Of a stretch of DNA of 64,000 bases, positions 1 to 64,000 are shown piece after piece (positions within the stretch are counted from its first letter, which is position 1; each line of letters begins with the position of its first letter). The notes under the pieces were generated by a model. That model made no database searches and was not told the origin of the DNA. It worked only from the letters and a program-made list of their open reading frames with translations. Source of the stretch: an uncultured Planctomycetales bacterium (lineage in GTDB: Bacteria; Omnitrophota; Gorgyraeia; Gygaellales; Profunditerraquicolaceae); assembly GCA_964545575.1 (NCBI GenBank), contig CAZJFL010000001.1, forward strand, positions 153,896-217,895. Direction: 5' to 3'. The position numbers and the translations under genes are program-made.

Positions 1-900
1 AGTAGCGGCTATGCGTAGCCAGGGTGAACCGTGATATAGTTGCGCCAATCTGCCTAATATATCTGATATTACAAAGCCCGCATGTGCGCTAACACCGAAA
101 TTCGAAAGTACTGCGTCCAAAAAAAGTGAAGAAATAGCGATAGGAATAATTAATGAGAAAAAGAATGCGCTAGGCTTCTTCTTAAGTAAGGGTTGGCCAT
201 AAGGAGCAAATAGGATAAAGCCAACGGAAATCAGGTAACCAACGCTCAAGGTAACGATATCCCAATAATCACCAACATAAGTCTTGGGATTCGGATAAGC
301 CTTAGCTATCTGGTTTAGTTCAGCTACTAATTGCAGCCCTAGGTGAAGCGTCATCAAAGCTATTCCTATAAGAGCTGTATCCTTGAAGACTGAATCTAAC
401 TCTTCAGAGGATTTAGACATGGCTTTAAGTAGCCTGCCTATAAGATCAAGAATAAAGAATAAAATGGCTCCAAAACCCAGAGTAATTAGCAAATCGTTAA
501 AATGTGAAGGGATTAACGGTGAGAAGGAATTAAACAAAGAATATAATTGCGTGTCTTTAGCAAAAGATCTCCAAGCAGCAAGAACTAAAATTACTATCGA
601 TATTGAATAATAAAGCCATACCTTGATGTTTACCCTGCTACTACGAAAATAGGCAGAGATTCTAATCAACCACCCCCTGGTTGTGGTAATTAAAATTAGA
701 GGTAATGGTGTCATGACAGCTGCGCTAAGGAGAGTGATTGCGGATACGATAATAACCGCCAGCCACGGCGGACCGGTGAACTGCAAGTGCTTAAGGATTT
801 CCTGTGTATGCGGGGACCCAAGCTTAAACATCGCCGATCCGGAAATGCCGATGCCCAGAAGCGGGGTTAACAATTCAAGCAGGAAGAAGCCGGATGATTT
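1..900 (-). other. Membrane region with several transmembrane helices, the most C-terminal part in the window
   Basis: Verified translation of 1-960 gives successive hydrophobic helices, for example KSSGFFLLELLTPLLGIGISGSAMF, PPWLAVIIVSAITLLSAAVMTPLPLILITTT, WLYYSIVILVLAAW, LGFGAILFFILDLIGRLL, ALIGIALMTLHLGLQLVAEL, VTLSVGYLISVGFILFAPYG and FFFSLIIPIAISSLFLDAVLSNFGVSAHAGFVISDILG. It is preceded by a Pro/Ala linker LQPPAAPVPARPK at about 905-960. Confidence 0.5.
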
Positions 901-48900: not shown

Positions 48901-51900
48901 GCAGCGCCTTCTTTCTATCCTATAGGCAAGATACCTAAAATATCCCGCCAGCTCAGCAGAAGGGAGCTTATCCAAATCTATGCTATCAATAAAAGCTTTT
49001 ACTTGTGTTAAAAAGGTATCAGGAGCAGTAACCCAGTCAAGGCAAGAAACAAATTGCCTGATTGCCTCTGAAAACGCCTCCCAGCTGCCGTTTGCGCCTT
49101 TATTCTTTCCCTTCCCTTTAGGCAGTTGCTCCCATAACCTTTTGATGATATCAAATATCTGCGGGTAGCTAATCCGGGCGAGGGCTGCCGGACAAAGCTT
49201 TATTACTCTGAGCCCCTTATCAAAATTACCCGTCTTTAAATAGGCACGAAGTAAATCCTCACCTAGGCAGGGATCATTCACTCCGGAAACTAAAATCTCA
49301 TTTAAATATCCCTCGGCTGCTTTAATCTCTCCCTTCTCTAATAAATAGGCGGCAAGCTCCAATCTAAACGCTATTCCTTTATCCGAGGTCAACTTTAAAC
49401 CGGTTTTTAACATTGTTAAGGCTAAATCTACTTTGCCTGCCGCACGATAAGCCCTGCCGGCGGTAAAAAGAAGTTCCGAGGCCGCTCTTTTTTGGAATGT
49501 TTTCGTGAGGTCGGCCATATTTTTGACTTCTCCGAAAGCAACCACAGCCAGGGCTAAAGATTCATCTGCCATTTCTTTCAACCCGGCGGTTTGCCCTTGC
49601 TGCAGGCGAATCTCCGTTATATCCCGGATCACCTCTGCTTTCAGGATAAGTAGTGAGGAATTTTCTTCCTCTTCAATCGCCTTATCCATTAATGGCAACG
49701 CTGATTCTAATAGCTGAAGCGCTTCTGTCAGCCGGCCGTGGGATTGATGCAGCGCTGCCAGAGAGCGCATTCCCTCGACCTGGAGATCTTCGCCGGCTTC
49801 TGCTAAAGCATCTTCAGCAAGAAGCCTTATGGCTTCCGCTTCATTGCCGAGCGCAGCGCAACAAATCCCCAGAGTCACGGTAATAATGGAATGGGGCACC
49901 TCTTCTTGCGCGGCAACTATCGCCTTACGCAAAGCATCTGCTGCCTGCTGATACTGGCGCCGGCGCAGAAAGTACATCCCTAAGCAAAAATATGCCTGCT
50001 CCATAACCTTAGCCCTTTCCTGCTCATAATAACGGCGCGCCTGATCTTTAGCGTCTGCGGGAATTATTAAGGGCGTCTCTTGCGCCTTTAAGACATATCT
50101 TTCTGTTTCCGGATAAAAAATAACCCCGTCTGACACTGCTTTTTCATACCAATAGTGGGCAATGCGTTTATAAGCAGAAGCGAGAAAATTAGGCGTGATG
50201 TACTTGCGGGCCTTCTCAGCATTAAGTTCCAAAAAGGTAACTACTTTCTTAAGATAGCCGATGGCTTTGTCGTAATCACCGAGATTGTAATAACAATGGC
50301 CGAGATTATAATTGCACATTGCCAGCAACGCAGAAACGTAGGTACTTTGCCGGAACTTTCCGGCTAGATTCTCTACCTCGGTCAGATACTTTATTGCCTC
50401 CTGAATTTCACCCAAATCAAGGCATGTCCCGCCTAAATTAAGGTAGGCGCGCATCCTCTTTGCATCATCGGTAAGCAGGCCGAGAAGCTCTAACAACGCC
50501 GCCTTTTCTCCCTGGCGATCCTCAACAGAAAGGCAGGAGGCGGCTTGAGCAAAGAGCTCTTGAATTCTATCCTTTGTCCCCAGCTCCTTAGCAAGCTCCC
50601 CCTTAAGAGTCGTAATCAGTTTGGTTAATTTGTTAGGATAGGCCACGCGGGGCTTTGCTGCCAGCTCTACTTGATTTAATAAATCTTCGGCAACCTGATA
50701 GTTTATTCCCGCAGCAGAAAAGGCTTTCACTAATACTAACTGAAAGACCATTAAAGCCATCTCGTCTCCTGTGTTAACTTTTGCTACCATAATGCCTGCT
50801 ATCGGCTGGAGTTGCTTTTGCTGAATCATAGCGGTGTATTCTTCTACAGTCAGTATCGCCTGCTGTCTCAATAGACTCCTCAGCGCATCTTTTCCTGCTC
50901 CTGATAGGCCTAACATAATCAGCAAACCGGTAATAGAATTATGGCCTATCCCAAGAAACGCTCCGATAAGAATTAATCCTGCCATCTGCGGCTGGGCGCG
51001 GATAAAACTCTCTAAACACTTTACAAAAGTCTTTAATAACTTAGCAAGAATACCCCAGAGGTATACTATTAATCCATAGCTCCATTGACGCACACTAAAC
51101 ATATTGCATACAAGAGCGCCGAGGAACAGGCCGACAGCAGCACCAATACCCGGCAGGCCCCACGCCATATAAGCAATCACTGCGCCGGTAAAAGCTAGGG
51201 CAATCGGAACGCGCATATTCGCTGTAGCATCGTTGATACTTGCGCGCTTCATTACTACCCCGGTTTTCGAATGTAATAATTTCTCTCTTTGCTCTCCGCT
51301 AAGGTCACGAAAGAGTATATGAGGCATAGTACAAAAGTTGAGATAGAGAGATAAGGGCGAGCCGGCAAAAGCAGGACCATAAATAATTAGGCCTTGCAAG
51401 AAAGGTGTTGGTTTCTCGGTATTTGGCTGTAGTTGTTTTCTTGCCGCATCAACTATATCCTTCGCCGCTGGATTTTCGGAATCTACAAGCAGCACATAAG
51501 GATAATCAATCTTCCTGGAAGTTAAATCTTCTGCATTTGTTAGCTCAATAACCCGGAATCCTTTTTGCGGCTGGGCAATCGCTGCCGTAGCTACGGCAGG
51601 CTGAGCTTCTTTTTGAGTGGGCGGCGCTGTTTCTACTCTGGCCTGCGAAACCTCCACTTCGACCTGCTGGGGCGCGGCTAATCCCTCTTTGATCCTGCTG
51701 ATAAGACTAGCTAGTCTGACGGGAGTGGCTTTTAGTCCGCTATTTTCTCGCGCTGCCTCTCTTTCTATATAATCAAGTATCGTAATTTTATCGGCATAAC
51801 GCATCCAGGTAGCTGTAAAGTTAACTGTATTAAAAGCTATTATCAAATTACGTATAAACCGCGCGGTATCTGGACAGTTGGGGCAATTGGCTACATTAAT

Positions 51901-54900
51901 AATTTCCTTAATCAGCCGGCCATACTGCAGCGGTTTTTCGCGCAACCCTTCCTTAATATACCTGATGTATTCTGCCAAATTGAGGACAACTAACCGAGCG
52001 GCGCTAGCGTCGTCATCACGCAGCGCTTCCCTGCCTCCGAGTAAATCGCTGTCGGAAATTACGCCGTAGATTTGCTCGTAAGCGTAGGGAGTCCTGTGCA
52101 TTGGTGGACAAACAAGCTTAAATTGCGCATTCCATTCTTTGCTTTGCACATCATAGGTAAGCAAGATAAAATATAACCTGCCTCCTTTCTCAATCACGGT
52201 GACAAAGCCGTATTTTCTTAAATCCTGCACATCCCTGGCCCTAAAACTTAACTGCACACCTAAATCTACTGACTCCTGCCTTAGCATCTCTAACCAAAGC
52301 CTTAACCCAAAGGCCTTGCCTTTAAGTTGCTCTTTCTTTAGGTGGTATTTATCTATTAATTTAGCTATCCACACTTCAAGATTGATGTCAGGAAATACGC
52401 GCGATAAGGCAATTAAGCCGCAATTTCCCTTGAGTGCCTCTATAAAAGCTGCTCTTGCGGCGGCTTCTTGCTCGGCTTTTACCTCTTTCGCTTGTTCGGC
52501 TATTCTGGCGGCTTCTTGCGCGGCTCTACCGGCGGCTGCTTCATCAATCCGGCGTGCGGGACTTTTAATTGTAGGCACGCGCTCTGCTTGCGCTACATCT
52601 CGAGTAGAAGAAAGCCTTTCTGCTGTTACCTCTTTACCTTTATCATCCCTACCAACCATCACATGGCCGTTAATCAACAATTCATCGATATTCCATCCTA
52701 TAAATTGATGTGTTTCCTCTTCATCGAGCAGACGATACCAAACCTCGCCCGGCTTAAGTACCTGAAGCATTAAAACCGGCTCGTTTTGGCCGGTCTCTGT
52801 TGAACTCTTCTCCATCATATTTGCTCTCATTATCGGATCATCGGGACTCATCCCGTCGGGAGTCTGAAATATATTCCCCATTCCATGGTTGGGGAAAAAC
52901 CGCGGAGAATTGTCATCCATCCGGCAAAAACGACAATCACGCCAACATTTAGAGGGTTCAATCTGAATTGCGCCGCAAGGCGCGCCGGACAATTCAATTG
53001 ACCGGGGGATATCTTTTCGGCTCGTAGTCGAGGCAAAGAAAATCAAACCAAGCACTTGTTCGCCGGGTACTCCTGCCGCCTCTAAACTGGCGATGATCGG
53101 CCCGGCAGCTACCTGAATAGGACTTCGATAAATTATTGGCGGATTTGTATCCCAAACATCTTCTCCTAAGGAAGCAGTTTTATAAACTCTCCTAAATCTT
53201 AATCCGGCAAAAATAGCGACCCTGGCTAAAACTATCGGCCAATCGTCTACGGGCATAAGACCATAGACTGGCTGCCCTGCTTCTTGAAGAAGTAAATCTA
53301 TTTCCGCCTGAAGGCTGTCTTTATATCTCTCAAGTGTTCTGGATATCCTCCTATATTGTTGACATAATTCTAAATGCTTCTTTGGTTCTGCTTCTAGTAT
53401 TATTTGGCTGACTATTTCTCTGTATCTTGCTGCCTCCCCTGCTTTACGTTCCTGTCCTTCCTTATTACCTTGCCCTTCTGCCTTCTTACCCGCCCTTTCT
53501 GCCTCTTCTGCCAGCTGCAGATTTCTTTGGATTATTTCTCTATTCTTTTCTCTAACTTTGCCCGCCGTCGCCAGAGACTTCTTAGCCAGTTCTCTATATA
53601 CCTGCGGCAATAAAGGTAATTCTGCCAAGAGAGACAGAAGAGTAGTGTGGTCATCGGTCTGATTTTCCAAGAAATGAATGAACTCATCTAATAGGGCATC
53701 CCAAAGAAGTTTCTTTAATCGGGGGTCTTCTTCTTTACCCATCAAATAATTCCAGAAAATCGGATGTAATCTAATGATTGCTAATGAGGATTTAGTGGCG
53801 GGAATAAATTCGGCAATATATCTTCTGCCTGTTTCGTCTATTTGGGTGGTTTGAGCAATCTCAATAACTACTCTTTCTTTATATTCTTGCTTCCGCCGTA
53901 ACGCGTCCTCTAAAGGCGGGGCGTGAATCAACATCGGTAGCAATTCTTCCAATAAGACCCGGCGAATACTTTCTGTTTCATCGCCGCTTAAATTTCCGGT
54001 GAGCGCCTTTAAGCCTACCTGCCAGTTGCTACTTATCTGCCCAAATCTGCAGCGAAGTTTTCTGGGAGTAAAATTATCATACCGGGCATCCCGCGTAATC
54101 CCCACCGGGTGGTGGCCGGGGCCGGGGCCGGCCGGCGGCTGGCTGGCCGGAGTAGTTTTGGCAGCCTGCCCGGTAACCTGTTCAATGGCCTTACCAATCA
54201 GTGCGATGGCTTTCTCATACTGTTCACCTGTTGTATTATATGCGCCGAAGCAATTTTTTATGCTTGCGCGAGCAAAAGAATGGATTGTGCAGCTCTGCGG
54301 CAATGACGCCCCTTTAACAGAAGATATAAGGGAATCATTCTTGCTCAGGAGCACGTAGGAAATGAACCTGTCGATCTCGAATAATGCCTTGTCTTCTGCC
54401 AGGGCAAGAAAAATAGCGAATGACTGCTTTCCTATCTCCGCCATAAATAATCTTACCTTTCCTTCCGGAAACAAACGGCAATCCAAATCCAGCAAAGCCT
54501 TATTTTCGGCAATCACGAAATACTCTGCTTCGGGGCTTTCCCTGATAATCCGCTCAATGAATCTGGAGTAGATAGCATCCTGGCCTTCGCCTGCGACCAC
54601 AAGGCTAATCCTCTCTGGTCCGATTTGATCTATTAGCCATTGATAGGCGAATTTGCTTTGCCAGGAATAAGAGGGGTTGCGAAAATCGCAGTCAGTGGCA
54701 AAAAAGCAAAGGGAAAGATTCCGGTGATAAGCTAAAAATGCCGCTATTACCCTGGCTGTATCCGGGCTAATGTTAGTTTTGCCTAAAGGAAAGATGACCC
54801 TGGCCGCTTGGAACCCCGGCTTAAGAAATGTCTCCTTGATGTAACTTAAGGCCTTTTCTCTTTCGACCACTTCTGAGTTTTCCTCCACAGCGATAACCAT

Positions 54901-57900
54901 GACCATTGCTTTCCTCTCCCCGAGGGCCGGCAAGGTCTGGCCACGGATAGACAGGGAACTGCGCAGCTCGTCATCTGTTAATGCCTGCTTGAGGTTATAG
55001 ACCTTGCCTTTAAAAGTAAAGGATATTTTGGCGGCTTCTCTTTCTCCCTCGCAATGTATGGCGTATACCTCGTAAAGTTTGCGCAAAATTTCCCACATTG
55101 TCTGCGTATCAATATCTCGCCTATTATCGGCATCAGGGACTATCGGCTGTACGACTTCCGCAAAGAAATCATAATCCTTCTCTCTTTGCAAGCGCTCCTG
55201 CGCTTCTAATACGCTGATACGGTCTAATTCCGGAAGCCGCCCTGTCTCTAACAGCTGCTTCACGGCCTGGGATAAGTAAGCGGCCGCCGAGTCAAGCAGC
55301 TGCGATTCAACCTGAAAACAGTCTTCTAATTCTCTGATCTTGTTGACTGTTCCTAACCCGTCAACAATGGCTACAAAATTATGGAAGGGGATCAAATCCC
55401 TGCTTTTTGCTGCCAGCAGCTTTCTTGCCCAATCCATCATCAGCGCTATCTCTGTTGACTGGAGGAAACTCACCTCTTCCGGCTCTGCGACGAATAAACG
55501 CTCAGTGGTAAAAATACCGTTTCTGGCGGCATTTACCACCAAATTGAGTTCCTCCATCATGGATTGCTGGTCAGGGATAAACCAGTCGTCATCCAGTAAA
55601 CTTTGGTAAATTGCGTATGTTTCTTCATCCAATGACTCCCGCAATATAGCCTGTACTTCCTCCCTCCTTTGCGAAGATAGCTTTGCGGTCCTGGAGTCAA
55701 GCAGGCTATAGCCCTCAAGAATCCCTGCCTTGTCTCCTAAGCGGAATCTGACATACTTTTCCACCTCTTCCTGGGCAACAAATATCAAGATGCGCCGAAT
55801 CCCGTATTTAAGCGCCATCAATTTAGCAAATACCACTCCATAATTCTGCAGCGTAGCATTTACGACCGCTGATGCCCGCGCTAATCTGGAGGTAATCGCC
55901 GGGTTATCGTGGATTTCTAAGCTTCCCAGGCCTGATCTCAATTCTTGTATTTGCTTAGTGAAATTAGCAGATGCCGGCCTTAATAGCTTAAATAACGCCT
56001 CTGCCCCTCCCAGGACAACGGCGTTGTACTCATCCATATCTGCGTATTGTCTCTTAACGTCGCTCCGCCCCGCTTCAAGGACTCGGGCTATAAAGAGGTT
56101 TTGGAACTGCGGGTTACTAGCAGCCTGCTCCCCAAACATGCTGATTCGATTCATGCCTGCAGCAGCTAACCTTTCTTTATATGTCCTTTTAGTAAAAGGC
56201 AGGATACGCTCATAAAAATCTGCCAGTTTTGCTTGCACTATAGCCACTTCCTCGGGCTTGATGGAAGCAATCTCTTCATCAAGAAAAATACCGATTACGC
56301 CTACTTCTCTCTCGATAAAATCCAGCGCCTCACGGAGCTCATCTCTTTTACGTGCATCAAAATCCAGCCAGGCCCTGTTGACGGACCCTCTGAGCGTATT
56401 GAAGTGTGTCCTTGTTGCGGAGGTAACGGCGCACAAATGCTCCCGTCTTTCCAGAGCAGCTACCGCCTGTTGCAGGCGCAGATAAGCGGCGTCTTCTGCG
56501 ATATTGCCTAAGTCTAAATCAAACCATTCCTGCCTCAGCGCCAACAGCCTTCCTTCTATATCCAAGAATTGGCTGACCGGCTCTAGCTCAGCTGCGATTG
56601 ACTTTTTCTCTTCATCAAAGCGGGCGCGCGCTTCTATCTTGGTTAAATCCGCGGCTTGCGTGCGGCAGCCCGTTAACACCTCTCTCAGGATAACCTTGGC
56701 AGTATCCCCCAGCAGGGATTGCGCAGTTAACCCGGATAATCTGGCAAGCAGCTGCTTGATTTGTCCAGCTAAGCTTTCGCTGGCATGCCTCTTGCTCCCC
56801 TCAATCTGGTCTATTGCCTGCAATGCTAAATTCCTGATCTCTCTCAGGCGGGCAAGGGCATAACCAAAAGTCTCTGCATTCGGTTTAGCATAGAATTTAT
56901 CTAATTGCTGGCCTACTGCCTGCCAGAGCCTGAGGCGGTTGATGATCCCATGCGCTCTCTCTGCGTCAATTACCCCCCACCTTCTGCCTAAGACAACCAG
57001 CGCTATAATGCGCTGCTTCATATTCAAGAGCCGCTTTTCATCATCCTTAAACTTGGAAGCCATTATTTTACTGTCAAAACCCCTTCTGCCCCGCCTGTAG
57101 AGATCTTTTTCTTTTTGCTTTGCTTCTTCGGCCGCCCTGGCAGCGTATATTTTCCCAACTACACGCATGATCTCTGCGGAAACTTCTTTTTCAAAGAAAA
57201 ATTCATGGACCCAGGCCAAGCGTTCTTTCAATCGAGGGAGTACGTCGGGCAAAACCATCTCTTGCATCCCCTTCAGGCGTTGGTCTTCAGGGATACTCCG
57301 ATCAGCCCAGAAATCATCGATCAGGAGAAGGCTTCTAGTTCCCGCTTCTCTTCTAGCGCCCTGCAGCTGGGCGGCAAGGGCTACTTCTTTAAAATCGTCT
57401 TTCTGGCCCTGGTCAAAATCTTCTGATTCTACCCCTACCAGTTCATCGATGGCTTGTTGGAGAGGGATAAAACGGCCCTTTTCTATTTCTATCGGAGTAG
57501 CGCCGATCTCTCCCAAGCCCTCCAGGTATAAAGAGGAGTCAACTGCGGGGCCCTGCAGGCTTCTTAATAAATTCAGCGCATCTTCGCCGGCGGTAGGAGA
57601 CCAAATATTCTCTTTACGCTCATGCGAATCTATCAGCGCCAGGAAAATAGTCTTCAGCCCCCGGTTTACCACATAAAATATGGCTGCGGGTTTGCTGAAA
57701 TGGACGTGTCCGGTTAATAACCCTCCGGGGGTACCACTCAAGGGATCGATTACTTCTTCTGCCTCTATCCAACGATGATACAGGCGCAATATTCTTTTAC
57801 CAACTTGCTGCTGCGCTTTCGGCTCTAATCTTTCCCAGTATTCCATAAATGGCAGGGTTCTGGCAAAAACCGGATATTCGGCCCTGTCGATGGCCCCTTG

Positions 57901-60900
57901 AGACAATATCGCTCTCACGCCCATCTTTTCACCCGCGCCCGGAACAACGCCGGCGGGCTCAACTTGTGTATTTCTTTTAACCAGTTGCAAAACCTGAGGC
58001 ACAAAATCCTTAGGCAGTTGGCCTTCGTATCTGCGTAAGGCCTCCTCAATTACGCCTATCTTGACATCCGGGTCTTTCTTTAGTATAGAAACGAGGATTC
58101 TGCTTACATCGCGCGGATAGGGAAGGCGCGAATTATCAGCGGCACAAATCTCAAAAATAGTTTCCACGACTAGCATTCCTCTTTTTTTGCCTCCCATTTC
58201 AGATAAAGCGTCTGCTGCGGGATCACTCCAATTGCATTCATTAGCCCAAGGGCCGCGATAAGAACTCCACAACTCTTTAGCTGCCTGCTTAACCAGCGCA
58301 TCAGCCCCCGGTATTCTCGCTACTACCTGCGCCAGAGCAGGTATTATCCGAACAAGACAAATATTATTCCAACCTTCCTGAGGATTTACAAAAGCGCCTG
58401 CGCGCCATAACGTTAAAGCCTCAAAATATGCCTCGACTGCTCTCTCGCCCCCTATTTTAGCTAAGGCCTTAACTGCTGCCTCTTTAACCGCGGTTTCCAG
58501 GCCTCTTACCGGGTTGCGGCATAAAAAGTATTTCAATCTACTCACCGCTCTTTCATCCCCTATATTACCAAGCGAAGAAATTGCCGCAGGGATAAGCAGC
58601 CGCTTATCTTGCTCTCTCTTTAAAAAGCCTAACCAAAAATCAAGCAGCGCTGGATCGCGCATATTAGCCAAAGCATCTGCTGCTTGCAAATAGGCTTCAG
58701 GCAGGCTTGTCCCAAGCTTCAAGCCTCGTCTCACTATTTCAATTAAAGAATCAGCTACTGGCGCCCCGATTTTACTTAAAGCCTCTGCCGCAGCCTTTGA
58801 TAATCCATCCCTGATATCAGCCTTAGAATCATCCTTTAGCTCAAGCATATTCTTCTTTAAAGCCTCCAATAAATCTTCCTTTGCTTCCATAGCACGCAGT
58901 TCTCCCAGCGCCTTGGCGCTGGCAACAAAAGCATCCAGGCCTTTATGAGCCAAAGCATAATTACTATTGTGCATACTCTCATTCAGGCTAAATTTCAAGC
59001 ATTCCAGCAAAGTATTGATTATTCTTTCTCTTATTACCAGCCTTATTTTAGCCAGCGTAACAAATTTCGGAATGACTGCGCTATCTACAGTCCGCACAGG
59101 CTCCTGGCGTAAGGGAGACGAATCGTGCTGCACGTACAAGGCAAAGAAAAGGCAGCTAAATCTATAAAGTGCATCCGCCTTAAAATGATCCCCAACCAGA
59201 TGCTCAATTGCTTCGTGGATCAATATTTCTCCTAAATCGGGCTGTTTATCCGGCGCCTGGAGGAGGCTGTAGAAATCATGGCTGATGCAGAAGACAACCT
59301 TAAGGAGACCTTCTATTTCTAATTCAACTAAACCTGAACGATAATCTACTCCTAAATCCACTACCCAGACTTGATCGATACGCTCAGGCAGGGCGAGCTG
59401 ACCTTGCGGACCAATCACTTCCCCGCAGATCCTCTTTAGCATAGGCCCGGCTGCCTCAAATTCTTTATTAATCATCTCTCCTAAGGCCGAAGTAACATCC
59501 TGTTGTTTCTCTGTGCCGATTGTCTCTTTGATAGCGGCGATAAATTCATCCCTGGTGCCGGGAAACGCACCATTATGGCCCTGACAAGGAGCAGAGGGGC
59601 CAGCTGGCGTCCGGCGGCTGGGGTCGGCGGCGGGCAATGAGGAAACGTTCAAGCTCCTCGCCATAGGAAAGATGAAGTCAAAGAAACTATCATCCGGGCA
59701 CCCATCATTAAGCTGCCTTGTTGTCCCGAAAAATCCTAGTTTTTTCCAGAACCTGCTCGTCTGCGCAATATTATTACATGTCCCCCAGAAAACAACGACT
59801 TGGAAACCGCATCGCCTGAAGTAAGGCGCAAGGTGATCCTCAAACCATAGCCTACCGATACCTTTGCGCCTTATTCTTTCATCAAGCCGATAATAAGTAA
59901 TCAAGGGTATCCACTTTAAATTATGATATGTGATTATCCACATCCTTCCCGGCCTGACAGCCGTACGTACGCTCTTTGGTGTCCAAAGCAAATCTTTTAT
60001 TTCTTTGCCATACCATTCAAGTGGCTGAGCATCCTCTTGCCCAACACCATCGATTTCTAATTTGTTTGTAGCATCCACCTCTACTTCAGCTATTTTTCCA
60101 CTTGATCCCCTCCGTCTAACTGTTATATAAGCTTTACGCTGTTCAGTAATTTCAGCCTCTACTTTAAGCTGTTTTATCCCCACGCCCAAGGCCCGGGCGA
60201 TTTCCTTAAGAGGAGCTAAGCTTTCCAGGGGAATTGCGCTATTAAAAGTAATCCTCTCGGAAGAACGTAACTCTAACGCCGTAACAAAATGGGACCAGCC
60301 GCCGCAAAATAACATCTTATCCATAATTACCTGTGTCATCTCCGGCCGCTGCAAAGCGCAATCTGCCAGAGGAACTAATGCCTCATCGAGACGCCTCTTA
60401 AATTCAGTTATCTCGGACGCATAACGCCTTTCATGGTCAGACTCTCGGTTATGGCTACACAAAAATTCAGAATACTCCCAACTTCTTTCACGATAAACAG
60501 CGATCAGGGCATCGACATCAACCACTGCGGCGACTGGCTGCCGACCGGCGCGGGCAGGGCCGCTGTAAGCCTCCACCACCTCTGCTACTGTTTCTTCCCT
60601 GGGTTTCGCAATATAAAATTTCTGCCTGAGGTCAAATTTTAAAGTCGCTGCCAATGCCGCGGCTCTTGTGTGGGCAGCGCTACCTTCAAGGCCTTCCTCG
60701 ACCCTGGCTAAGAAATGTCCTATTTCATGCTTTAATATTTTTTCGCTCCCCCCTTTTTCGACGACAACAGAAAATACGTACTTTTCAGACGACCGCCACA
60801 TTCTGTAACTATCTTTCACCAGCACCCCGCCGCCCCACCTGCTTAAGCGGCCTGGTGAAAATTCATAGACTCGAATTTGATAGCTATCCTTCTGCCCTTT

Positions 60901-63900
60901 TATTTGGATAATCTTAACATCACACGGCACATTCTGTTTTAAGTCCACGGCATCACCCGGATTGACCTTATTGTTATAGGCACCAAGCACCTGGCCGCGG
61001 CCGGGGCCGGCTGGCGGCTGGCTGCTTGAGCCGGTGCCTGACAAGACGAGGCCGGTGTTGCGCGCCAGGAGAGCGGCGGAGATTTGATATTCATTAAGTG
61101 TATAGCCTCTATCCGAGAATGTGCCGTTAAAGGTAAACCCTAACTTTCTATGCAAGCTATTAGTCGCCAGATTGTCTGCTAAGGTTAATATCACTAACGT
61201 CGGCTCACTGCTATGATCAAGCAAGAAATAGCGCGGGCCCTGTTGCGCATAATCAAAAGGCAGGACCAATTCTATGCCGTTGGCCTCGCAATATTCTTTA
61301 ACCTCCCTGAATATCGCCAGGTATTTAGCCAGGTCTTTCTCTTTGGGCATCAGGGATTTTCCCATATCTTGCCCGAAGAAATGTAAGCCGACATTGGCTA
61401 ATGCGCCGATAATAAATACTTTATCGCCGGGCTGTAATCTATTCTTGACGATTTCCAGAATCCCGTCGTATTTATCGAACTTTGCGCCGCCAAAAATCGC
61501 CACCCACGGATGCTTAGCGCTCTTTTCGAAGGCGCTGATTTTAGCCATCTCGGCCTGCGTATATTCTCCTGTCCTGCGGTTTCCCGCGGCAAAAAGATTG
61601 ATCATTTCTATCGATGCTTCTTTGGGGCGATGCCATTTATCCACTGCCTCAAAAACATAATATTTTGCCCCGGTCAGCTCGATGATTCTCTCGGCAAAGG
61701 CCTTTCTCTCGGCGGCATCTTTGGATTTCTCCTGCCGATAGAATCTGACATTTTCAAAGATAAAGATTGCCTTGGGATATTGGCGCCTGGTTTCGGCAAT
61801 CTGCTTTTGGGCGTTATCCAGGTCAAAATCTAAAAGCACGACCGGAATATCTATACCTTCTGCGGCAAGAATCTCTTTTAATCTGGCTGCTACCGGCTTA
61901 AGGCTGTATTTTTCTTCAAAGCCTTCTCCTTTGGGCCGGCCCATATGCGTCATCACAAAAAGGTAATCAAGTTCTCCCAGCGATTTCTTTATCGTTGGGA
62001 CGGCCTGCCGGATTCGCTGATCGTCTCGGATGGCGCCTCCTTTATCCAGAGAAACATTAAAATCTGCTGCCAGGATCGCCGCCTTCTCCGGCGTATTCCG
62101 CTTACCCGCCACCGCTGCAACGCCCATCGAAACCGCTTTCGCCAAACCTAAAATAAAAACGGGCAGGATAAAACTGAAATCTAAATGCGCAGCCGGCGCT
62201 GGTGCCTGATTTGCGGCAAATAATAAATTGGGCAATAAGAGAATTGTGCCGATAACAAAAGGCAGGATGGATTTCAGATACCGGCTTGCCTCAAGGCCTT
62301 TGCCTGCCGGCGCTAATTCCTCTTTCCTAGCTTCTGCCAATTCATTTTTCCGGGCTTCTACCAACAGACGGAACTTAGCCAATAAAAGTTCCAGGTGCGG
62401 AATCGAAGAGTCTACCTTGTGCTCCACCTTGCGTTGCCCGGCCTCATAATCGTCTGTAATTACCTCTTGCTCTTCTTGCTTCTCTTGCTCCTCCTCCATA
62501 AGCTGCCAGAAGAGCCTCGCTGGCCACTCTGCTATAATCTTTTCTTCGCGGTAATAGAGGCAATAGCCGATGAACTTCCTGATTTCTGCGGCGTACAGGC
62601 TGAATCCCCGCGCATCAAAATATCCTTCGGTAAGGATAAACTTCAGCCAGGCCGCCTCCAGGTAAGTGAGCTCTAAATCATATCCTACTTCTTTTAAAGA
62701 AAAGTTAACCCCTGTCCCGGCGCAGAATATCTCCACGGCCTTTTCCGCGTAGGGCTCAAATAAACCGCGCAGCTTCGCTACAAAATCCTGCCAGATTACC
62801 AACGCCGGAGCAGCAACCAATCTTTCTTCATCCGCTATATAAGCCCCGGCAGGATTAAAATAATAATTAAGCAAATGCTTTGCATTCTGATAGATGCGGG
62901 CAAAGGAATCTCTTCTTAAAGTAGAAAACTCGGCATCGCACCTATTTGCCTGCGCCAGCGCCCGGTGCATTGTTTTCTCAATCCGCCGGTAAAGTTCTCC
63001 GGTTAAACGGTGCGAGATTTTATCTTCCGTAACATAAGCCAAGAAAACCTTTACGCCTTCTAAATCCAAACAATACGGCTCCCTGCCTACGGCTGTTGCC
63101 ACTGCCTGTTTTACCAAATTCGGATGTTTTATTGCGCCGCCTGCATCCAGCGCTTTTATGCCGCAGAGAATAGCGGCAATAAATCTTCTCTCGTGATCGT
63201 AAAGCTTGGCATTGATTGCCTGCTGTTCCGGGTTAGCCTGATTTGCTTCCTGCTCAAGCTCCGCCAGCGCTGCCACTGCTGCCTCATATTTAAGCCGGTC
63301 TTGCCTGTCCGTTCCTACTGCCGCCGCAATAAACCCGCCCATCGAAAGCGCTTCCGCGGCAGCTAAAATAAAAAGAGGCCAGAATAACAGATTATGGCGG
63401 CTGGCTTCGCTGCGCCTGCCTTTAAACAAAGGATACAGCGCTACTAATAATAAAATTCCGATAAGCGCAACCGACAGCACCCAATCATAAGAAAACAACT
63501 TGGATAAAAGCATGGCCAGTTGCGCAAAAGGATCTACCTTAGGAACCGGATATATAAGCCCTGCGTAAGCCGGCAAAACAAATATAGGTAACAGCATTCC
63601 GGCAGCGATTGCCCCGGCGCCCGGGCGGGCGGCTTTCTTTTTTCGAAGAGAGGGACGCCTCAGAAAAGAAAGCATGCGTATGCCGCTTATTCCGTCAGCG
63701 TCTAAAGTCCAATCTTTTCCCGGGTCAAATCCCAGAGACTCGAAGAAATTCTGCGCCCGCTCTTTTGCCAACCTGCTATCTTTTGTCTCGCCGGCAGATA
63801 AGGGGTTGGCTTTTAAAAACCAAGCATCCTTAAGGTATCCTTCAGCTTGCGCCAATAATAAATACACAAAAGCCCTACCTAAGCCCAAACCATGGTTTCC

Positions 63901-64000
63901 TTCACCGATAATTTCTATCTTATCAATAATATAGGTATGATTTTTTTCGTTATCCTCCCCAAATTGTTCGTCTTTAGGTTTAGCAGGTGCAATTATTAAA
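1..64000 (-). CDS. Giant ORF with no start or stop inside the window, at least about 21,300 codons. It would encode a multi-domain mega-protein or polyprotein with interleaved membrane anchors.
   Basis: Minus-strand frame with codons at plus positions 3k+1..3k+3. About 150 sixty-base lines sampled from 1 to 64000 were translated codon by codon. None contains TTA, CTA or TCA in frame on plus, which are the minus-strand stops, and all give protein-like sequence with recognisable motifs. All 15 minus-strand ORFs in the supplied track have high coordinate congruent to 1 or 2 mod 3, none to 0, and none exceeds 88 aa. Plus-strand ORFs are short and low-complexity, as expected for antisense. I did not scan every one of the 21,333 codons, so a single isolated in-frame stop cannot be excluded. 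Confidence 0.8.
1150..1480 (-). other. Transglutaminase-like, papain-fold cysteine peptidase core
   Basis: Verified line 1321-1380 reads C-R-D-W-K-D-A-I-C-D-R-F-R-K-E-D-F-I-T-A. Reading-pass context is LILGECLVVGCKEPIRG...GWCRDWKDAICDRF...HSCVEVKIQGDSRWYVLDRT. This matches the transglutaminase-core pattern G-x-C-R-D-[FW]-A ... H-x-W-x-E-V ... W-x-x-x-D-[PR]-T, with Cys, His and Asp in the canonical order. Confidence 0.45.
2050..2540 (-). other. GNAT acetyltransferase-like module 1
   Basis: Verified lines 2221-2340 read YVCALEEAIVAFGDGIYVSIDWRDKGIGSLLRDEVFAYLK. The GNAT motif A is R-x-x-G-I-G-x-x-L. Confidence 0.5.
3560..3980 (-). other. GNAT acetyltransferase-like module 2
   Basis: Verified lines 3661-3780 read RVIAKEGIFVDSAYQFRSIGSNLITQALELTTHYGYSEFL. 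The motif-A-like stretch is QFRSIGSNLI. Confidence 0.45.
4000..4700 (-). other. Possible chymotrypsin or 3C-like protease fold with a cysteine nucleophile, very tentative
   Basis: Verified lines 4141-4260 read SRDILEIDTTGTEINHGGICGASVFYKGKLVAIVYEAEVL. G-x-C-G followed by G-K-L-V resembles the nucleophile region of 3C-like and trypsin-fold proteases. No His/Asp partners were identified. Confidence 0.2.
4850..5560 (-). other. Protein-kinase-like module 1, possibly Kdo/RIO-like and atypical
   Basis: Verified lines 4981-5280 read ...SLEEVIDDQHRRNRYYRKMFLANERYFFREIGRVYGILNRELHIFHGDSSLRHIFITTNGKVLLIDFSTLQYEGKL. HGD as catalytic-loop-like and L-I-D-F as DFG-like have the order and spacing typical of Kdo/RIO/APH-type kinases. 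There is no canonical Asn after HGD, so it may be a pseudokinase. A TM helix LPAVVVLLVLFADGIYNPILAGIILGLLVGGLLMAG precedes it at about 5620-5720. Confidence 0.4.
6700..7150 (-). other. GNAT acetyltransferase-like module 3
   Basis: Verified lines 6841-6960 read KDFHAVSLDDFFVHPKYRNRGIAGSLIEFCQNKFSRITLI. This is a classic GNAT motif A, V-x-P-x-Y-R-x-R-G-I-[AG]-x-x-L. Confidence 0.5.
7260..7800 (-). other. GNAT acetyltransferase-like module 4
   Basis: Verified lines 7261-7560 read HEHMIHGIAGGQKSVRSYYNLNWMAVIKKLEIHSSLRGKGVGYVWYSRVIEPYLRRCGFDIILLHGTCVDEGNTRRFWRRQDFSERF. These are GNAT motifs A (RGKGVG) and B (N..RFW.RQ.F). Confidence 0.55.
8030..8215 (-). other. J-domain (DnaJ/Hsp40 type) with intact HPD motif
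   Basis: Verified lines 8041-8220 read KKDYYGVLGVTKDAAPDEIKGQFLKLTKRYHPDICQSDARLGEIMRQIIEAYLVLSDPEK. It has the canonical D-Y-Y-x-x-L-G-V, K-x-Y-H-P-D and A-Y-x-V-L-S-D elements. Confidence 0.75.
8250..8900 (-). other. Cluster of transmembrane helices N-terminal to the J-domain
   Basis: Verified line 8401-8460 reads GAPSLGEIMFLFGILGGIFG. Reading-pass context gives further hydrophobic helices, for example LAMFGALIVFSFVGATGAP and GVTALAGLVFKWLVVKPIIWL. Confidence 0.45.
9500..10150 (-). other. Protein-kinase-like module 2
   Basis: Verified lines 10021-10140 read VEPKTGDVKDIRTYGAGNITIQILGELGAGLSGTVYKAKD, a Gly-rich loop G-x-G-x-x-G-x-V-Y-K followed by FAVKYY, a beta3-Lys-like element. Verified lines 9541-9660 read LVRELGFIGIGRQIDSANLNSLANIVKTAGGDFRIMDLVG. 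QIDSANLN is catalytic-loop-like with D and N, and IMDLVG is DFG-like. Confidence 0.5.
11100..11620 (-). other. Haloacid dehalogenase (HAD) superfamily hydrolase domain, subfamily IA (beta-phosphoglucomutase/phosphatase-like)
   Basis: Verified lines 11101-11640 read SPNSSFKAVIFDCDGVIIDTVQEHFQAWRMLSEAHRGPEVTMQYFQERLNGRKETTSIEMMFPGLADAQVLLMAQERQKYYMQLLELRGVNKIQGTFALISRLREAGIRLVVGSGSDATPEILEKIGLKNNFDVVITSRDVQRGKPDPEMFLLAAKRMGVAPEQAIVIGDADADIKAGIS. All four HAD motifs are in order: I FDCDG, II S-G-S, III K-P-D-P, IV G-D-x-x-x-D. Confidence 0.8.
11700..12400 (-). other. Transmembrane helices between the two HAD-type domains
   Basis: Reading-pass translation gives FGFAFIAFLVAAGFVYSVPQLGKICLGLTVLVALAGLVFVV and YYAFAAAAVLCAFVFGWLLV...PAIPYFIFFALVFLALAYGLFTFF. 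A Pro/Ala-rich linker RAKAGPGPVPIGEASPEG follows at about 11630-11690. Confidence 0.4.
13330..13520 (-). other. Highly acidic low-complexity linker
   Basis: Codon-level pass gives ELESEEEQPDDDKDANAVDDEVEPVVLEDEGDEETPEARELEGF. Confidence 0.4.
13960..14660 (-). other. HAD superfamily module 2, subfamily IIB (Cof / sugar-phosphatase-like)
   Basis: Verified lines 13981-14100 read AVDVALVDKKDAVAALAKRLKIPLAEVFVSGDGPNDFGML, the hallmark IIB motif IV G-D-G-x-N-D-x-x-M-L preceded by K. Verified line 14581-14640 reads AFKLYVHDYDDNLADFREAI, a candidate motif I D-x-D about 205 aa upstream. Confidence 0.55.
14797..14950 (-). repeat. Diverged third copy of an intragenic hydrophobic module shared with 25921-26078 and 32632-32789
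   Basis: Codon-level translation gives ELEGFGLGLSAVTTTTIITTIASILGVFGPILPRLLEWVMLARDYFLACLRSAQGS. It is about 75-80 percent nucleotide-identical to the other two copies, with the same reading frame and the same Thr/Ile-rich helix. Confidence 0.6.
17650..18200 (-). other. Sigma-70 family region 2-like module (core-binding, -10 recognition-like)
   Basis: Verified lines 17761-17940 read GLREEELIGIGNLGLMSGIDKASDEYKPGEGGFEEYLKGAIRKAIQDAFYCRGIAFRNNP. This matches the sigma-70 region 2.2-2.4 consensus [DE]-L-I-x-x-G-N-x-G-L-M-x-x-x-D-K-F...G-x-x-F-x-x-Y-x-x-x-x-I-R-x-A-I. Reading-pass context upstream, ...FRELLICHYLPLVIQVFEE..., resembles region 2.1. Confidence 0.6.
21350..22100 (-). other. Highly charged K/E/R/Q-rich helical region (single-alpha-helix or coiled-coil-like) containing a QEAAR pentapeptide tandem repeat
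   Basis: Verified lines 21361-21480 read REAATQEAAKLKLARQEAARQEAARQEAARQQSQRGQAAQ. Verified line 21601-21660 reads IAQEKIEQKRLELEKREQAR. Confidence 0.6.
21389..21466. repeat. Tandem 15-nt repeat, about 4 units of cc(t/g)ggctgcttcttg, encoding (QEAAR)n on the minus strand
   Basis: Plus strand reads cctggctgcttcttg ccgggctgcttcttg cctggctgcttcttg ccgggct..., followed by a degenerate unit gcttggctgcttcttg. Confidence 0.7.
22560..22760 (-). other. Winged-helix, MarR/GntR-type helix-turn-helix-like segment
   Basis: Verified lines 22621-22740 read LRERRELSQSLKISYGSLQNMLAKLQELRLIDAARQLTAKGQ. The pattern is helix, turn, recognition helix, then G-L-I-like wing. Confidence 0.35.
24600..24790 (-). repeat. 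Copy A of an internally duplicated paralogous protein domain with an H-E-[KR]-G-E ... D-H cluster
   Basis: Verified lines 24661-24780 read FIDGRYFLLVDGDLFPDEFIGYVALHEKGEELFGDHQLAT. Copy B at about 45830-45960 reads YLMVDSKFFPKQIVEYIAVHERGEALFDSHYLATLLELAV. Confidence 0.6.
25921..26078. repeat. 158-nt perfect direct repeat, copy 1 (copy 2 at 32632-32789; in-frame spacing 6,711 bp = 2,237 codons)
   Basis: Both copies match base for base over the stretch ggcgctgcgcaggcaggccaagagataatcgcgcgctaacattaccccttctaatagccgcggcaggatcgggccaaaggcgccaaggatactggtgatagtggtgatgatagtggtgatggttgccgcgcttaatcctaaaccaaacggccagaaaa. Flanks diverge immediately on both sides. Minus-strand translation gives FWPFGLGLSAATITTIITTITSILGAFGPILPRLLEGVMLARDYLLACLRSA, a transmembrane-like helix. 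Confidence 0.85.
26450..27400 (-). other. Protein-kinase-like module 3, ABC1/UbiB (aarF-domain)-like atypical kinase
   Basis: Verified lines 27061-27180 read RLVERIGGGSLVSVYLVEEKSGRKYILKVLNP, which compares with UbiB I-A-A-A-S-I-G-Q-V-H ... V-A-V-K-V-Q-R-P. Verified lines 26581-26700 read IIRNYLEQLGDGLGLVHSDTHEGNFRITPDGRVAILDRNF, which compares with UbiB F-H-A-D-P-H-P-G-N-I ... D-G-R-I-A-L-L-D-F-G. Confidence 0.55.
30700..31000 (-). other. HExxH zinc-metallopeptidase-like module, M48/Ste24/HtpX-like context, HELQH at about 30808-30822
   Basis: Verified lines 30781-30960 read GINPHLYVLQETQHLIGLGLPDGSIIASLKLLTYLKTEDEAAVFLAHELQHIYSGHSLDN. This resembles the M48 segment N-A-x-x-x-G ... I-x-x-x-x-x-L-L ... 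E-x-x-A-V-L-A-H-E-L-G-H. Confidence 0.45.
31954..31968 (-). other. Second HExxH motif (HELVH)
   Basis: Verified line 31921-31980 reads KILIHELVHNYFSVGMARIK. Confidence 0.4.
32632..32789. repeat. 158-nt perfect direct repeat, copy 2
   Basis: Identical to 25921-26078. Downstream protein context differs (...RSAHGPPWKERLADLIEKILPRWLFTFQNAPLGCSIQDAS here, ...RSAQGPPIAETIATLIEQILPRWLFTLQNVPAGCSIKDVSDTE at copy 1), so the repeat is embedded in diverged paralogous modules. Confidence 0.85.
34700..35250 (-). other. DUF89 / ARMT1-like (damage-control phosphatase family) module
   Basis: Verified line 35101-35160 reads RPKNIIYVFDNAGEDVMDFV. Verified line 34981-35040 reads AYNDATKTEIEQLLQEPAIK. Verified line 34801-34860 reads FKGQGNYLTVRNCAPTKDSL. 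The D-N-A-G-E and K-G-Q-G-N signatures are characteristic of this family. Confidence 0.5.
35950..37100 (-). other. Glycosyltransferase family 4 (GT-B fold, Glycos_transf_1-type) domain
   Basis: Verified lines 36001-36480 read WKMENAKVLDFKHPVVLLAARIYEAKGHLDLIRIAGILRNSGQRAKFIFAGPESGPEFTAKIITAANKAGLDPQDIIFTGDLSQEQLRDYYAASDVIVLPSESEGLPRVLLEAQAMGKPVIAYNVGGISEAMRHGETGYLVKKGDIYGFAARLEELLDDP. This is the canonical GT4 C-terminal motif set, E-x7-E-G-x-G-L-P-x-L-E-A-x-A-x-G-x-P-V-I-A ... G-G-x-x-E-x-V. Confidence 0.8.
37330..37700 (-). other. Transmembrane helices immediately N-terminal to the GT4 domain
   Basis: Verified lines 37441-37620 read AIFESLISPLFVAGGAWLLS, LAFGLPFSLAPPFWFVFAFL and AAYQFLLWHPLHIPGAPGQN. 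Confidence 0.5.
40300..40314 (-). other. Third HExxH motif (HEFGH)
   Basis: Verified line 40261-40320 reads LFHEFGHRPYVKGKNKDIFA. Confidence 0.4.
43290..43440. repeat. Short imperfect tandem and dispersed repeats (units ctcccccgccttatc / ctgtccccgccttatc and gctgtccctgaaactgg / accgtccctgttagg) encoding D-K-A-G-[TE]-V-[PR]-V peptide repeats
   Basis: Verified lines 43261-43440 read ...DGSRQNQEVPLDSNGEQPVSGTAPLGEQGNDKAGTVPVIDKAGEVRVPILQALASIKRFI. Confidence 0.5.
43700..44050 (-). other. Class I SAM-dependent methyltransferase motif, TrmB-like (tRNA m7G46 methyltransferase-like)
   Basis: Verified lines 43921-44040 read EGKPVRLVLEVGSGMGGFLLGRRRLADCKDERTVIIGLEP, which compares with TrmB L-E-I-G-F-G-M-G ... 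F-L-G-I-E. Verified lines 43741-43920 read ...RARLKDVVLLRLTLEEFRLFGNLRFDEVFILAPDWREVNNDMCDDSF, which compares with TrmB F-P-D-P-W. Confidence 0.55.
49250..50700 (-). other. Tetratricopeptide-repeat (TPR) region
   Basis: Verified line 50221-50280 reads GDYDKAIGYLKKVVTFLELN. Verified line 50401-50460 reads KRMRAYLNLGGTCLDLGEIQ. These show the TPR signature G-x-Y-x-x-A-x-x-x-Y, and reading-pass context shows repeated 34-aa-type helical units. Confidence 0.5.
50850..51250 (-). other. Transmembrane helix cluster
   Basis: Verified line 51121-51180 reads VIAYMAWGLPGIGAAVGLFL. Adjacent reading-pass sequence is similarly hydrophobic. Confidence 0.4.
52924..52977 (-). other. Cysteine cluster C-x9-C-x3-C-x2-C, a radical-SAM-like CxxxCxxC or other Fe-S/Zn site
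   Basis: Verified line 52921-52980 reads PCGAIQIEPSKCWRDCRFCR. Confidence 0.5.
58300..58900 (-). other. HEAT / PBS-lyase-type helical repeats
   Basis: Verified line 58441-58500 reads LETAVKEAAVKALAKIGGER. Verified line 58561-58620 reads KREQDKRLLIPAAISSLGNI. The periodicity ...V-R-x-x-A-x-x-A-L-G-x-I-G-x-x-x-A-V... repeats several times in the reading pass. Confidence 0.5.
59200..59217 (-). other. Fourth HExxH-like motif (HEAIEH)
   Basis: Verified line 59161-59220 reads IHEAIEHLVGDHFKADALYR. Confidence 0.35.
59700..60000 (-). other. GNAT acetyltransferase-like module 5
   Basis: Verified line 59821-59880 reads ERIRRKGIGRLWFEDHLAPY. Reading-pass context is ...ITYYRLDERIRRKGIGRLWFEDHLAPYFRRCGFQVVVFWGTCNNIAQTSRFWKKLGF. 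Confidence 0.5.
60715..60729 (-). other. Fifth HExxH motif (HEIGH)
   Basis: Verified lines 60661-60780 read YVFSVVVEKGGSEKILKHEIGHFLARVEEGLEGSAAHTRA. Confidence 0.4.
61150..62080 (-). other. Phosphoglycerate kinase (PGK)-like domain, N-terminal substrate-binding domain plus the start of the C-domain, apparently truncated before the nucleotide-binding tail
   Basis: Verified lines 61861-62040 read GGAIRDDQRIRQAVPTIKKS...LGELDYLFVMTHMGRPKGEG FEEKYSLKPVAARLKEILAA, which compares with PGK R-V-D-F-N-V-P ... D-D-x-R-I-R-A-A-L-P-T-I ... S-H-L-G-R-P ... K-Y-S-L-x-P-V-A. Verified lines 61381-61500 read AIFGGAKFDKYDGILEIVKNRLQPGDKVFIIGALANVGLH, which compares with A-I-L-G-G-A-K-V-S-D-K-I ... L-I-I-G-G-G-M-A. 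Downstream reading pass lacks the PGK G-G-G-A-S and W-N-G-P motifs. Confidence 0.7.
62150..62300 (-). other. Transmembrane helices immediately N-terminal to the PGK-like domain
   Basis: Reading-pass translation gives YLKSILPFVIGTILLLPNLLFAANQAPAPAAHLDFSFILPVFILGLAKAVSMGVAAVAG. Confidence 0.35.
63300..63560 (-). other. Transmembrane helices near the N-terminal edge of the window
   Basis: Verified lines 63301-63600 read GMLLPIFVLPAYAGLIYPVP, VLSVALIGILLLVALYPLFK and LLFWPLFILAAAEALSMGGFIAAAVG. Confidence 0.5.

Follow-up and report, generated by a model that had tools for sequence, protein, structure and literature searches.

A phosphoglycerate kinase-like module with a conserved substrate-binding half and an unrecognisable last third in a giant gene of probable Omnitrophota origin

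The stretch of 64,000 nucleotides analysed here (the window; contig CAZJFL010000001.1 of assembly GCA_964545575.1, positions 153,896 to 217,895) contains a segment related to phosphoglycerate kinase (PGK), located on the minus strand at window positions 61234-62088 and corresponding to codons 638-922 of a reading frame that crosses the entire window. Judged by sequence comparison, the first two thirds of this PGK domain have diverged no faster than those of catalytically intact relatives, while its last third is unrecognisable. The explanation favoured here, to which a probability of about 0.6 is assigned, is that the segment is a PGK-derived pseudo-enzyme, forming a single module within a giant membrane protein of the multi-enzyme, multi-pass kind. 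The module descends from an Omnitrophota PGK lineage whose members are normally full-length and form part of fusion proteins of 0.6-2.8 thousand residues. Its 3-phosphoglycerate (3PG)-binding domain has remained under normal constraint, together with the hinge and strands one to three of the nucleotide domain, whereas the second half of the nucleotide domain has lost the residues holding ATP/ADP and Mg, and the C-terminal tail is gone. Held beside the membrane by a preceding helical hairpin, such a tethered pseudo-enzyme might offer a putative pocket for 3PG, 1,3-bisphosphoglycerate or a similar phospho-acid, or it might act as a structural block. The statements on the anatomy of the module are near certain. 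Because the residues holding ATP/ADP and Mg and the C-terminal tail are lost, the module most likely cannot transfer phosphate, and the odds that it is non-catalytic but still useful are about even.

Six-frame translation (table 11) gave no stop codon in the giant minus-strand frame that carries the module, which occupies window positions 1..63999 as 21,333 uninterrupted codons with both window ends open, against 689-1531 stop codons in each of the other frames. Residue i of this frame begins at window coordinate 63999-3(i-1). The stop-codon counts across the six frames rule out a chance open reading frame and an assembly artefact, and an alternative genetic code is unnecessary, as translation under table 11 meets no stop. 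All of the window is internal to one gene, which is longer than 64 kb and encodes a protein of more than 21,333 residues. The PGK-like module, taken as codons ~638-992, makes up about 1.5% of the visible part of this protein. Viewed in isolation, the succession of a helix, a PGK domain and a loss of similarity does resemble a short protein, and one might imagine, as is implicit in the preliminary description of the window, a small gene of its own that encodes a truncated PGK anchored in the membrane. Such a gene can scarcely exist here, as the frame lacks stops across the 64 kb, including the parts before the helices and after the domain, the region holds no bounded open reading frame of this kind (the open reading frame listing gave short ones only), and recognisable domains go on in frame for 20,000 more codons. 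The lesson for genome scanning is that the module reads as a small, odd gene only when the surrounding 64-kb open frame is overlooked.

A preliminary description of the window, made from the sequence alone, had listed hallmark PGK motifs and noted that the C-terminal nucleotide-binding motifs seemed to be missing. All the listed motifs are present on the minus strand between residues 640 and 870, namely ADFNV, DDQRIRQAVPTI, HMGRP, KYSLKPVA, AIFGGAKFDKY and FIIGALA, and the similarity lies far beyond chance. The Pfam model PF00162 matches residues 638-919 with an E-value of 5.2e-44 and 151 bits (cut-off 27), but its alignment covers only profile positions 8-263 of 379. With filters off, a profile built from 60 ordinary PGKs scored 166 bits over its positions 13-269 of 395, and its positions 270-395 matched nothing in residues 900-1120. 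The strongest match, 302 bits with an E-value of about 1e-93, was obtained with a clade profile built from 19 domains of long Omnitrophota PGK proteins; positions 13-301 of 440 were aligned with small gaps, the last aligned residue being 922. No match to the remaining positions 302-440 of this profile was found across the 21,333 residues or in other nearby frames, again with filters off, so that the lost third occurs nowhere in the visible protein. Among the protein structures of the PDB, phmmer matched 46 PGK chains (best E-value 1.3e-26), and every alignment ended at the LPxD strand, at chain residue ~265-287. All profile and sequence searches end in the same manner at LPFD, around residues 918-922, and none covers a complete two-domain PGK.

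Up to this point the residues expected of a PGK are preserved almost without exception. Residue numbers of human PGK1 are used below as labels only; conservation itself was counted on database sequences, comprising 60-63 ordinary PGKs and 19 clade members. The N-terminal, 3PG-binding domain (window 61570..62088, residues 638 to ~810, minus strand) is fully conserved, as judged from its residues, its predicted confidence and the structural matches described below. Eight positions of the 3PG site, D23, N25, R38, H62, R65, R122, H169 and R170, are invariant in the ordinary PGKs, and all eight are identical in the window (D646, N648, R662, H685, R688, R752, H790 and R791), which answers the question of the substrate-binding arginines and histidines left by the preliminary description. 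The hinge and the first half of the C-terminal domain, as far as the LPFD strand, follow on the same strand at 61234..61569 (residues ~811-922) and include GGAKFDK and IIGALA. This part alone matches clade profile positions 183-301 with 84 bits. K840 is the equivalent of the invariant K215, and D842-K843 belong to the FDK of the clade and are the equivalents of D218 and K219, so both catalytic lysines are kept. Altogether, 28 of the 29 clade-invariant columns (at least 90% conserved) that precede LPFD are identical in the window, and the mean identity of the window to the clade members (37.7%) falls inside the range found within the clade itself (mean 39.6%).

Beyond LPFD the picture changes abruptly. 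The remainder of the nucleotide-binding half (window 61024..61233, residues 923-992, minus strand) appears eroded, its catalytic motifs are gone, and it gave no profile match even at an E-value of 1000. In a global MAFFT alignment with 63 PGKs, GLDIGP is replaced by LVILTL, WNGPMGVFE by FN---GTFSD and GGGDS by SGTGS; LVILTL thus stands at the site of the (Q/G)xDIG motif, FNGTFSD at that of NGGAGxF(D/E) and SGTGS at that of GGD(M/S). In this forced alignment D314 falls on V936, G337 and P338 on a gap, E343 on S962, G372 on T989 and D374 on S991. The clade keeps D314, N336, G337, G340, E/D343, G372, D374, T393, G395 and G396 in 17-19 of its 19 members, and only N336 and G340 of these late sites persist in the window, as N958 and G959 of the same forced alignment. 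No alternative placement of the sequence past LPFD restores the nucleotide-site motifs. The STGGGASLEFLEGKxLPG tail is aligned with the linker SQPPAGPGRGQ. The Pro/Gly-rich linker SQPPAGPGRGQVL, at 60985..61023 (residues 993-1005, minus strand), sits at the place of the TGGG loop and the C-terminal helices. The TGGG loop (T393, G395 and G396) has no counterpart in the window, and the same is true of the whole TGGGA...LPG tail, which is present in 17-19 of the 19 clade members.

Residues 923-992 may nevertheless retain a trace of their origin. A BLAST alignment to the clade proteins P0130 and P0128 extends weakly as far as residue 959 (ADNLATNSLHRKLGFTFNG against vDnIdSLeeGDGLILNG), which hints that part of the lost third was eroded in place. 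Moreover, hydrophobic strand-like stretches alternate with amphipathic helix-like ones in this segment, and this alternation suggests a remnant of the PGK nucleotide half. The description of the domain as truncated therefore needs to be refined: the similarity does end at LPFD, but the ~70 residues that follow seem to be a faint remnant, and only the last ~60 PGK residues seem to be wholly absent.

The predicted structure breaks off at the same place. The AlphaFold model computed from an alignment of full-length PGKs had a mean predicted local distance difference test score (pLDDT) of 77, with residues 636-918 (model positions 1-283) confident and model positions 284-375 at 37-58. As this alignment forces PGK columns onto the tail, the prediction was rerun with homologues that cover only residues 636-925. 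The rerun gave pLDDT values of 86-97 for residues 636-916 and 27-42 for residues 917-1010; within it the segment of residues ~811-922 reached 82-96. Thus, the structure check proposed with the preliminary description returned a model that is confident to about residue 916-918 and has pLDDT values of 27-58 beyond, and in neither run did a confident fold complete the nucleotide domain. Foldseek returned PGK structures only, the best being 13pk (E-value 8e-24, TM score 0.69).

The hydrophobic helix noted directly upstream of the domain proved to be one of two. The first helix of the hairpin, ILPFVIGTILLLPNLLFAA, lies at 62212..62268 (residues 578-596, minus strand) and has a mean hydropathy of 2.21 over 19 residues. 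The second, FSFILPVFILGLAKAVSMGVAAVAG, at 62104..62178 (residues 608-632, minus strand), was delimited by eye, the scan having called residues 601-619, with 5 residues between its end and the start of the PGK match. Lysine and arginine residues number three in the 15 residues before helix 1 and three in the 15 residues after helix 2 (KRNTPEK...), and there is none in the connecting loop NQAPAPAAHLD. Under the positive-inside rule, this distribution would place the PGK-like module in the cytoplasm. A second hairpin further upstream, at window 63313-63480 (residues 174-229), resembles the one at 62104-62268 (residues 578-632), as seen from PLFILAAAEALSMGGFIAAAVG and PVFILGLAKAVSMGVAAVAG. The loops of the two hairpins differ in charge (KGRRSEASRHN in residues 174-229 and NQAPAPAAHLD in residues 578-632), which makes the topology ambiguous. 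The idea of a membrane-anchored PGK holds in so far as membrane-type helices precede the domain, but the anchored entity is a module of a giant multi-pass protein and not a small truncated enzyme. Nor is the upstream helix special to this copy, since a hydrophobic N-terminal segment before PGK is common in the Omnitrophota clade.

The relatives that define this clade surfaced only in an exhaustive HMMER search and not in a word-indexed one. The word-indexed search with the domain returned ordinary PGKs of 395 residues only, at no more than 37% identity and 55-60% query coverage. Ordinary pgk genes, about 30% identical, were also all that peptide patterns recovered from GTDB species genomes. 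In the exhaustive search of 1.84 billion representatives, 18 of the best 21 matches were proteins of 598-2599 residues (37-43% identity, 123-205 bits); the remainder comprised the tandem double PGKs P0131 and P0138 (~796 residues) and one ordinary 395-residue PGK (128 bits). All the long proteins among these best 21 that have a source name are called 'phosphoglycerate kinase [Candidatus Omnitrophota/Omnitrophica bacterium]'. By these similarities, the PGK-like module is assigned to an Omnitrophota-specific PGK lineage. The relatives reach position 377-392 of 395 of the ordinary-PGK profile or 433-437 of 440 of the clade profile. Eight metagenome loci found with clade-specific patterns (L016-L023) likewise encode full-length domains, in open reading frames of 608-2175 residues, except L018, in which a stop occurs at clade position 364. 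One clade relative, P0149, carries a 90-residue insertion (its residues 1174-1267) in the loop after the LPxD strand, which is the point where the similarity of the window ends. A single, signal-peptide-like hydrophobic segment at the N-terminus was observed in 17 of the 22 clade proteins that start with Met, which is unexpected for glycolytic enzymes.

The main competitor of the pseudo-enzyme explanation is decay. According to this possibility, which is considered rather unlikely, a fast-evolving giant gene acquired a PGK domain by copying or carry-over, and the domain broke at the loop after the LPxD strand and now persists as a functionless filler or spacer, its conservation reflecting nothing more than the recency of the event. 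The truncation is indeed unique among all the relatives found, and the similarity ends abruptly at the loop that bears the insertion in P0149, which points to a rearrangement-prone site. The giant frame holds other duplicated modules, and the giant open reading frames of Omnitrophota have been reported to be poorly conserved and mostly unique in sequence (PMC10066038; bioRxiv 10.64898/2026.06.07.730766). However, the nearest relative is just 42-43% identical, so that the copy is not a recent one as measured against the sequences sampled. If neutral decay had erased the last third, one would expect it to have struck the first two thirds too, yet 28 of 29 invariant residues and all the substrate-binding residues survive there. 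The faint in-place remnant that reaches residue 959 also speaks for differential erosion rather than for a clean replacement.

The opposite possibility, a kinase or phosphotransferase that is still active, is regarded as quite improbable. In such a case the 70-90 residues past LPFD would rebuild, in a new manner, a site for the nucleotide or another phosphate donor, or a partner would supply it in trans. Both the K215 and the K219 equivalents survive, as do the hinge and GGAK, the first glycine-rich loop, the strand and helix pattern past LPFD is like that of the remaining part of a Rossmann fold, and the full-length relatives of the clade look catalytically competent. Against this stand the changes D314V, E343S, G372T and D374S, the deletion of G337 and the absence of the TGGG loop and the C-terminal helices. 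In addition, the last part is without a confident fold in both AlphaFold runs, and no second C-terminal piece of PGK occurs in the 21,333 residues.

A non-catalytic 3PG-binding module, as the preliminary description had proposed, is a reasonable reading, because the segment is PGK-derived, membrane-type helices precede it, its nucleotide motifs are gone and its 3PG site is intact. Several observations nonetheless weigh against the pseudo-enzyme explanation. The truncation occurs in none of about 30 clade relatives or the 8 metagenome loci, so a recent accident is possible, and the insertion in P0149 indicates that a rearrangement at the same loop is possible as well. Recent copying from a functional gene, rather than a function of the module itself, could also explain why the first two thirds are conserved. 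No orthologue of the giant gene was found by 40-base exact matches in viral and metagenome contigs, by GTDB peptide patterns or with a 2000-residue query, the single match of the latter being a distant protein of the Elusimicrobia type discussed below. The residue assignments past LPFD come from a forced alignment of unrecognisable sequence, and half a Rossmann fold may be unstable alone. The topology is also ambiguous: if the hydrophobic segments, five in number, are counted from the end of the window, the module falls on the opposite side of the membrane, although the third segment is weak, and the same ambiguity has been published for such giant proteins (bioRxiv 10.1101/2023.11.21.568195). 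A bolder version of the pseudo-enzyme explanation, in which selection maintains the module as a membrane-tethered receptor or sensor of 3PG or 1,3-bisphosphoglycerate that couples the metabolic state of the cell, or that of prey or host cells, to the neighbouring modules, is unlikely and offered as speculation. If true, bacteria would here provide the first case of a PGK N-domain used to sense a ligand without catalysis.

Among known genes, the giant ones of Omnitrophota rank with the longest, and what they do is largely obscure. The existence of these genes, their membrane-anchored multi-enzyme architecture and the presence of glycolysis-type domains on them are already known, and database entries named 'phosphoglycerate kinase' already include the long Omnitrophota PGK fusions. 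In a literature search of a limited library, with the sources accessible in part, no account was found of a PGK domain on giants of this kind, nor of a PGK whose substrate half is intact and whose nucleotide half is erased. The module offers a clean example: half of a well-understood enzyme is preserved residue by residue, and the other half is erased. A fragment of 375 residues could show whether the enzyme-like domains carried by these giants are catalysts, ligand-binding modules or debris. Furthermore, the frequent occurrence of Omnitrophota PGK in long glycolytic fusions, mostly with a signal-peptide-like start, bears on how glycolysis is organised in very small, possibly predatory cells.

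The rest of the giant frame has the composition of a multi-domain membrane protein. Hydropathy alone (mean Kyte-Doolittle value of at least 1.6) identified 52 hydrophobic 19-mers, about 1 per 410 residues, and the published density of transmembrane helices in Omnitrophota giant proteins is ~1 per 370 residues. A Pfam run along the frame placed, all on the minus strand, HEAT repeats at residues ~1767-1857, TPR repeats at ~4516-4870, a GT1/GT4 domain at ~9181-9345, an ARMT1-like phosphatase at ~9506-9739, an M48 peptidase at ~11019-11078, an ABC1 kinase at ~12279-12486, two HAD hydrolases at ~16624-16689 and ~17459-17633, DnaJ at ~18596-18658 and GNAT domains at ~18993-19082 and ~20034-20136. 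The named best relatives of the GT4 domain are from Omnitrophota, and taken with those of the PGK-like module they make it probable that the giant gene comes from this phylum. The flanks of the PGK-like module, residues 1-640 and 920-1500, gave no usable Pfam match at E-values up to 1, and the flanks gave no BLAST match to the long Omnitrophota relatives.

Several further features of the frame were observed. HExxH motifs occur five times, against ~0.4 expected by composition, at residues 1091 (window 60715-60729), 7896, 10678, 11060 and 17312. The context is hydrophobic and zincin-like in four of the five, only the site at residue 11060 has a Pfam match (Peptidase_M48), and the first site lies ~100 residues past the PGK-like module. 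These sites may be self-processing peptidase modules. A module of ~110 residues (FGLGLSAATITTIITTITSILGAFGPILPRLLEGVMLARDYLLACLRSA...) is present in three copies with 70-75% identity, on the minus strand at window 32512-32841, 25801-26130 and 14653-14982 (residues 10387-10496, 12624-12733 and 16340-16449). Two duplicated pairs were also seen, one at residues 5953-6121 and 13020-13187 with 41% identity, the other, GNAT-like, at residues 1334-1470 and 18802-18940 with 28% identity. The plus-strand GC skew is below zero in all 2-kb bins (-0.02 to -0.20), which fits one long minus-strand gene.

Compared with known systems, the module is set apart by which part of PGK it retains. Ordinary PGK (EC 2.7.2.3, PF00162, ~395 residues) shares with it the fold, the substrate-binding residues, the hinge and the GGAK loop at 30-37% identity. 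However, the ordinary enzyme has E343, D374, a GGG loop, a TGGG loop and the C-terminal helix, all of which are lacking in the module, whose last third cannot be recognised and which forms part of a giant membrane protein. The bifunctional PGK-TIM protein of the Thermotoga type demonstrates that PGK tolerates fusion. Its model, NF010569, was the sole NCBIfam model matched, and only in part (143 bits against a cut-off of 883; positions 13-267 of 645), the TIM part being absent.

The closest relatives are the long Omnitrophota PGK fusions, such as MCX7927234.1 (P0124, 2026 residues), MFH1398213.1 (P0148, 2772 residues) and MDD5746852.1 (P0122), with 37-44% identity and up to 205 bits. They have in common with the window the signatures MTHxGRPxGxGFEE, FENIRFYxxExSKD, EAxDKxHRxxEAS(M/I)E and GKSxMPK, and GGAKFDK, in which one residue is deleted relative to ordinary PGK; among them, as in the window, the PGK domain is commonly preceded by a hydrophobic segment. 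In these fusions of 0.6-2.8 thousand residues no catalytic residue of PGK is lost and the domain is full-length (Pfam positions 5-377 of 379; clade profile to ~435 of 440), whereas the window copy ends at clade position 301. Their PGK is joined to GAPDH, TIM, enolase or PGM, none of which was found by Pfam in the giant frame of the window.

A second, more distant type is seen in the Elusimicrobia 'phosphoglycerate kinase' of 2.4 thousand residues (the OGR93660.1 cluster; P0189 and P0121), where a PGK-like domain lies between hydrophobic helices in a long protein. Proteins of this type (at least 2.4 thousand residues) also bear CofD-like and HAD-like parts; P0121 comes from a JGI metagenome (locus L013, 3-8240), and its gene runs off the contig end. 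The Elusimicrobia type shares with the window the one-residue deletion in GGxK-x-DK, but with 29-32% identity it is no nearer than ordinary PGKs, and it reverses the pattern of the window, the nucleotide site being kept and the 3PG site being changed (D23N, N25D, R38K and R170A). This opposite pattern hints that the two halves of PGK may have been repurposed separately in giant proteins.

The giant open reading frames of Omnitrophota have been described as encoding tens of thousands of residues with dozens of transmembrane helices and few, divergent domains (Seymour et al., 2023, PMC10066038). The 'Archaeovorin' proteins of the same phylum carry HEAT, glycosyltransferase, TPR and glycolysis-type domains (West-Roberts et al., 2023, bioRxiv 10.1101/2023.11.21.568195), and the giants of the 'multi-enzyme metabolic cluster' are rich in GT1, HAD, GNAT and PGM (bioRxiv 10.64898/2026.06.07.730766). 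The glycolysis-type domains already reported on giants are TIM, GPI, FBPase, PGM, aldolase and PPDK (PMC10066038; bioRxiv 10.1101/2023.11.21.568195; 10.64898/2026.06.07.730766), and the searchable text of the papers on Omnitrophota giant open reading frames makes no mention of a PGK domain. SecA-DEAD-like and N-terminal C39/S8 peptidase domains, said to be common in full-length giants, were not found in the visible 21,333 residues of a gene whose ends lie outside the window. The frame of the window and the Omnitrophota giants are alike in exceeding 10 thousand residues and in having many transmembrane segments, HEAT and TPR scaffolds, GT1, HAD and GNAT domains and divergent, mostly sequence-unique domains. 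The giant frame thus fits the multi-enzyme membrane giants of Omnitrophota.

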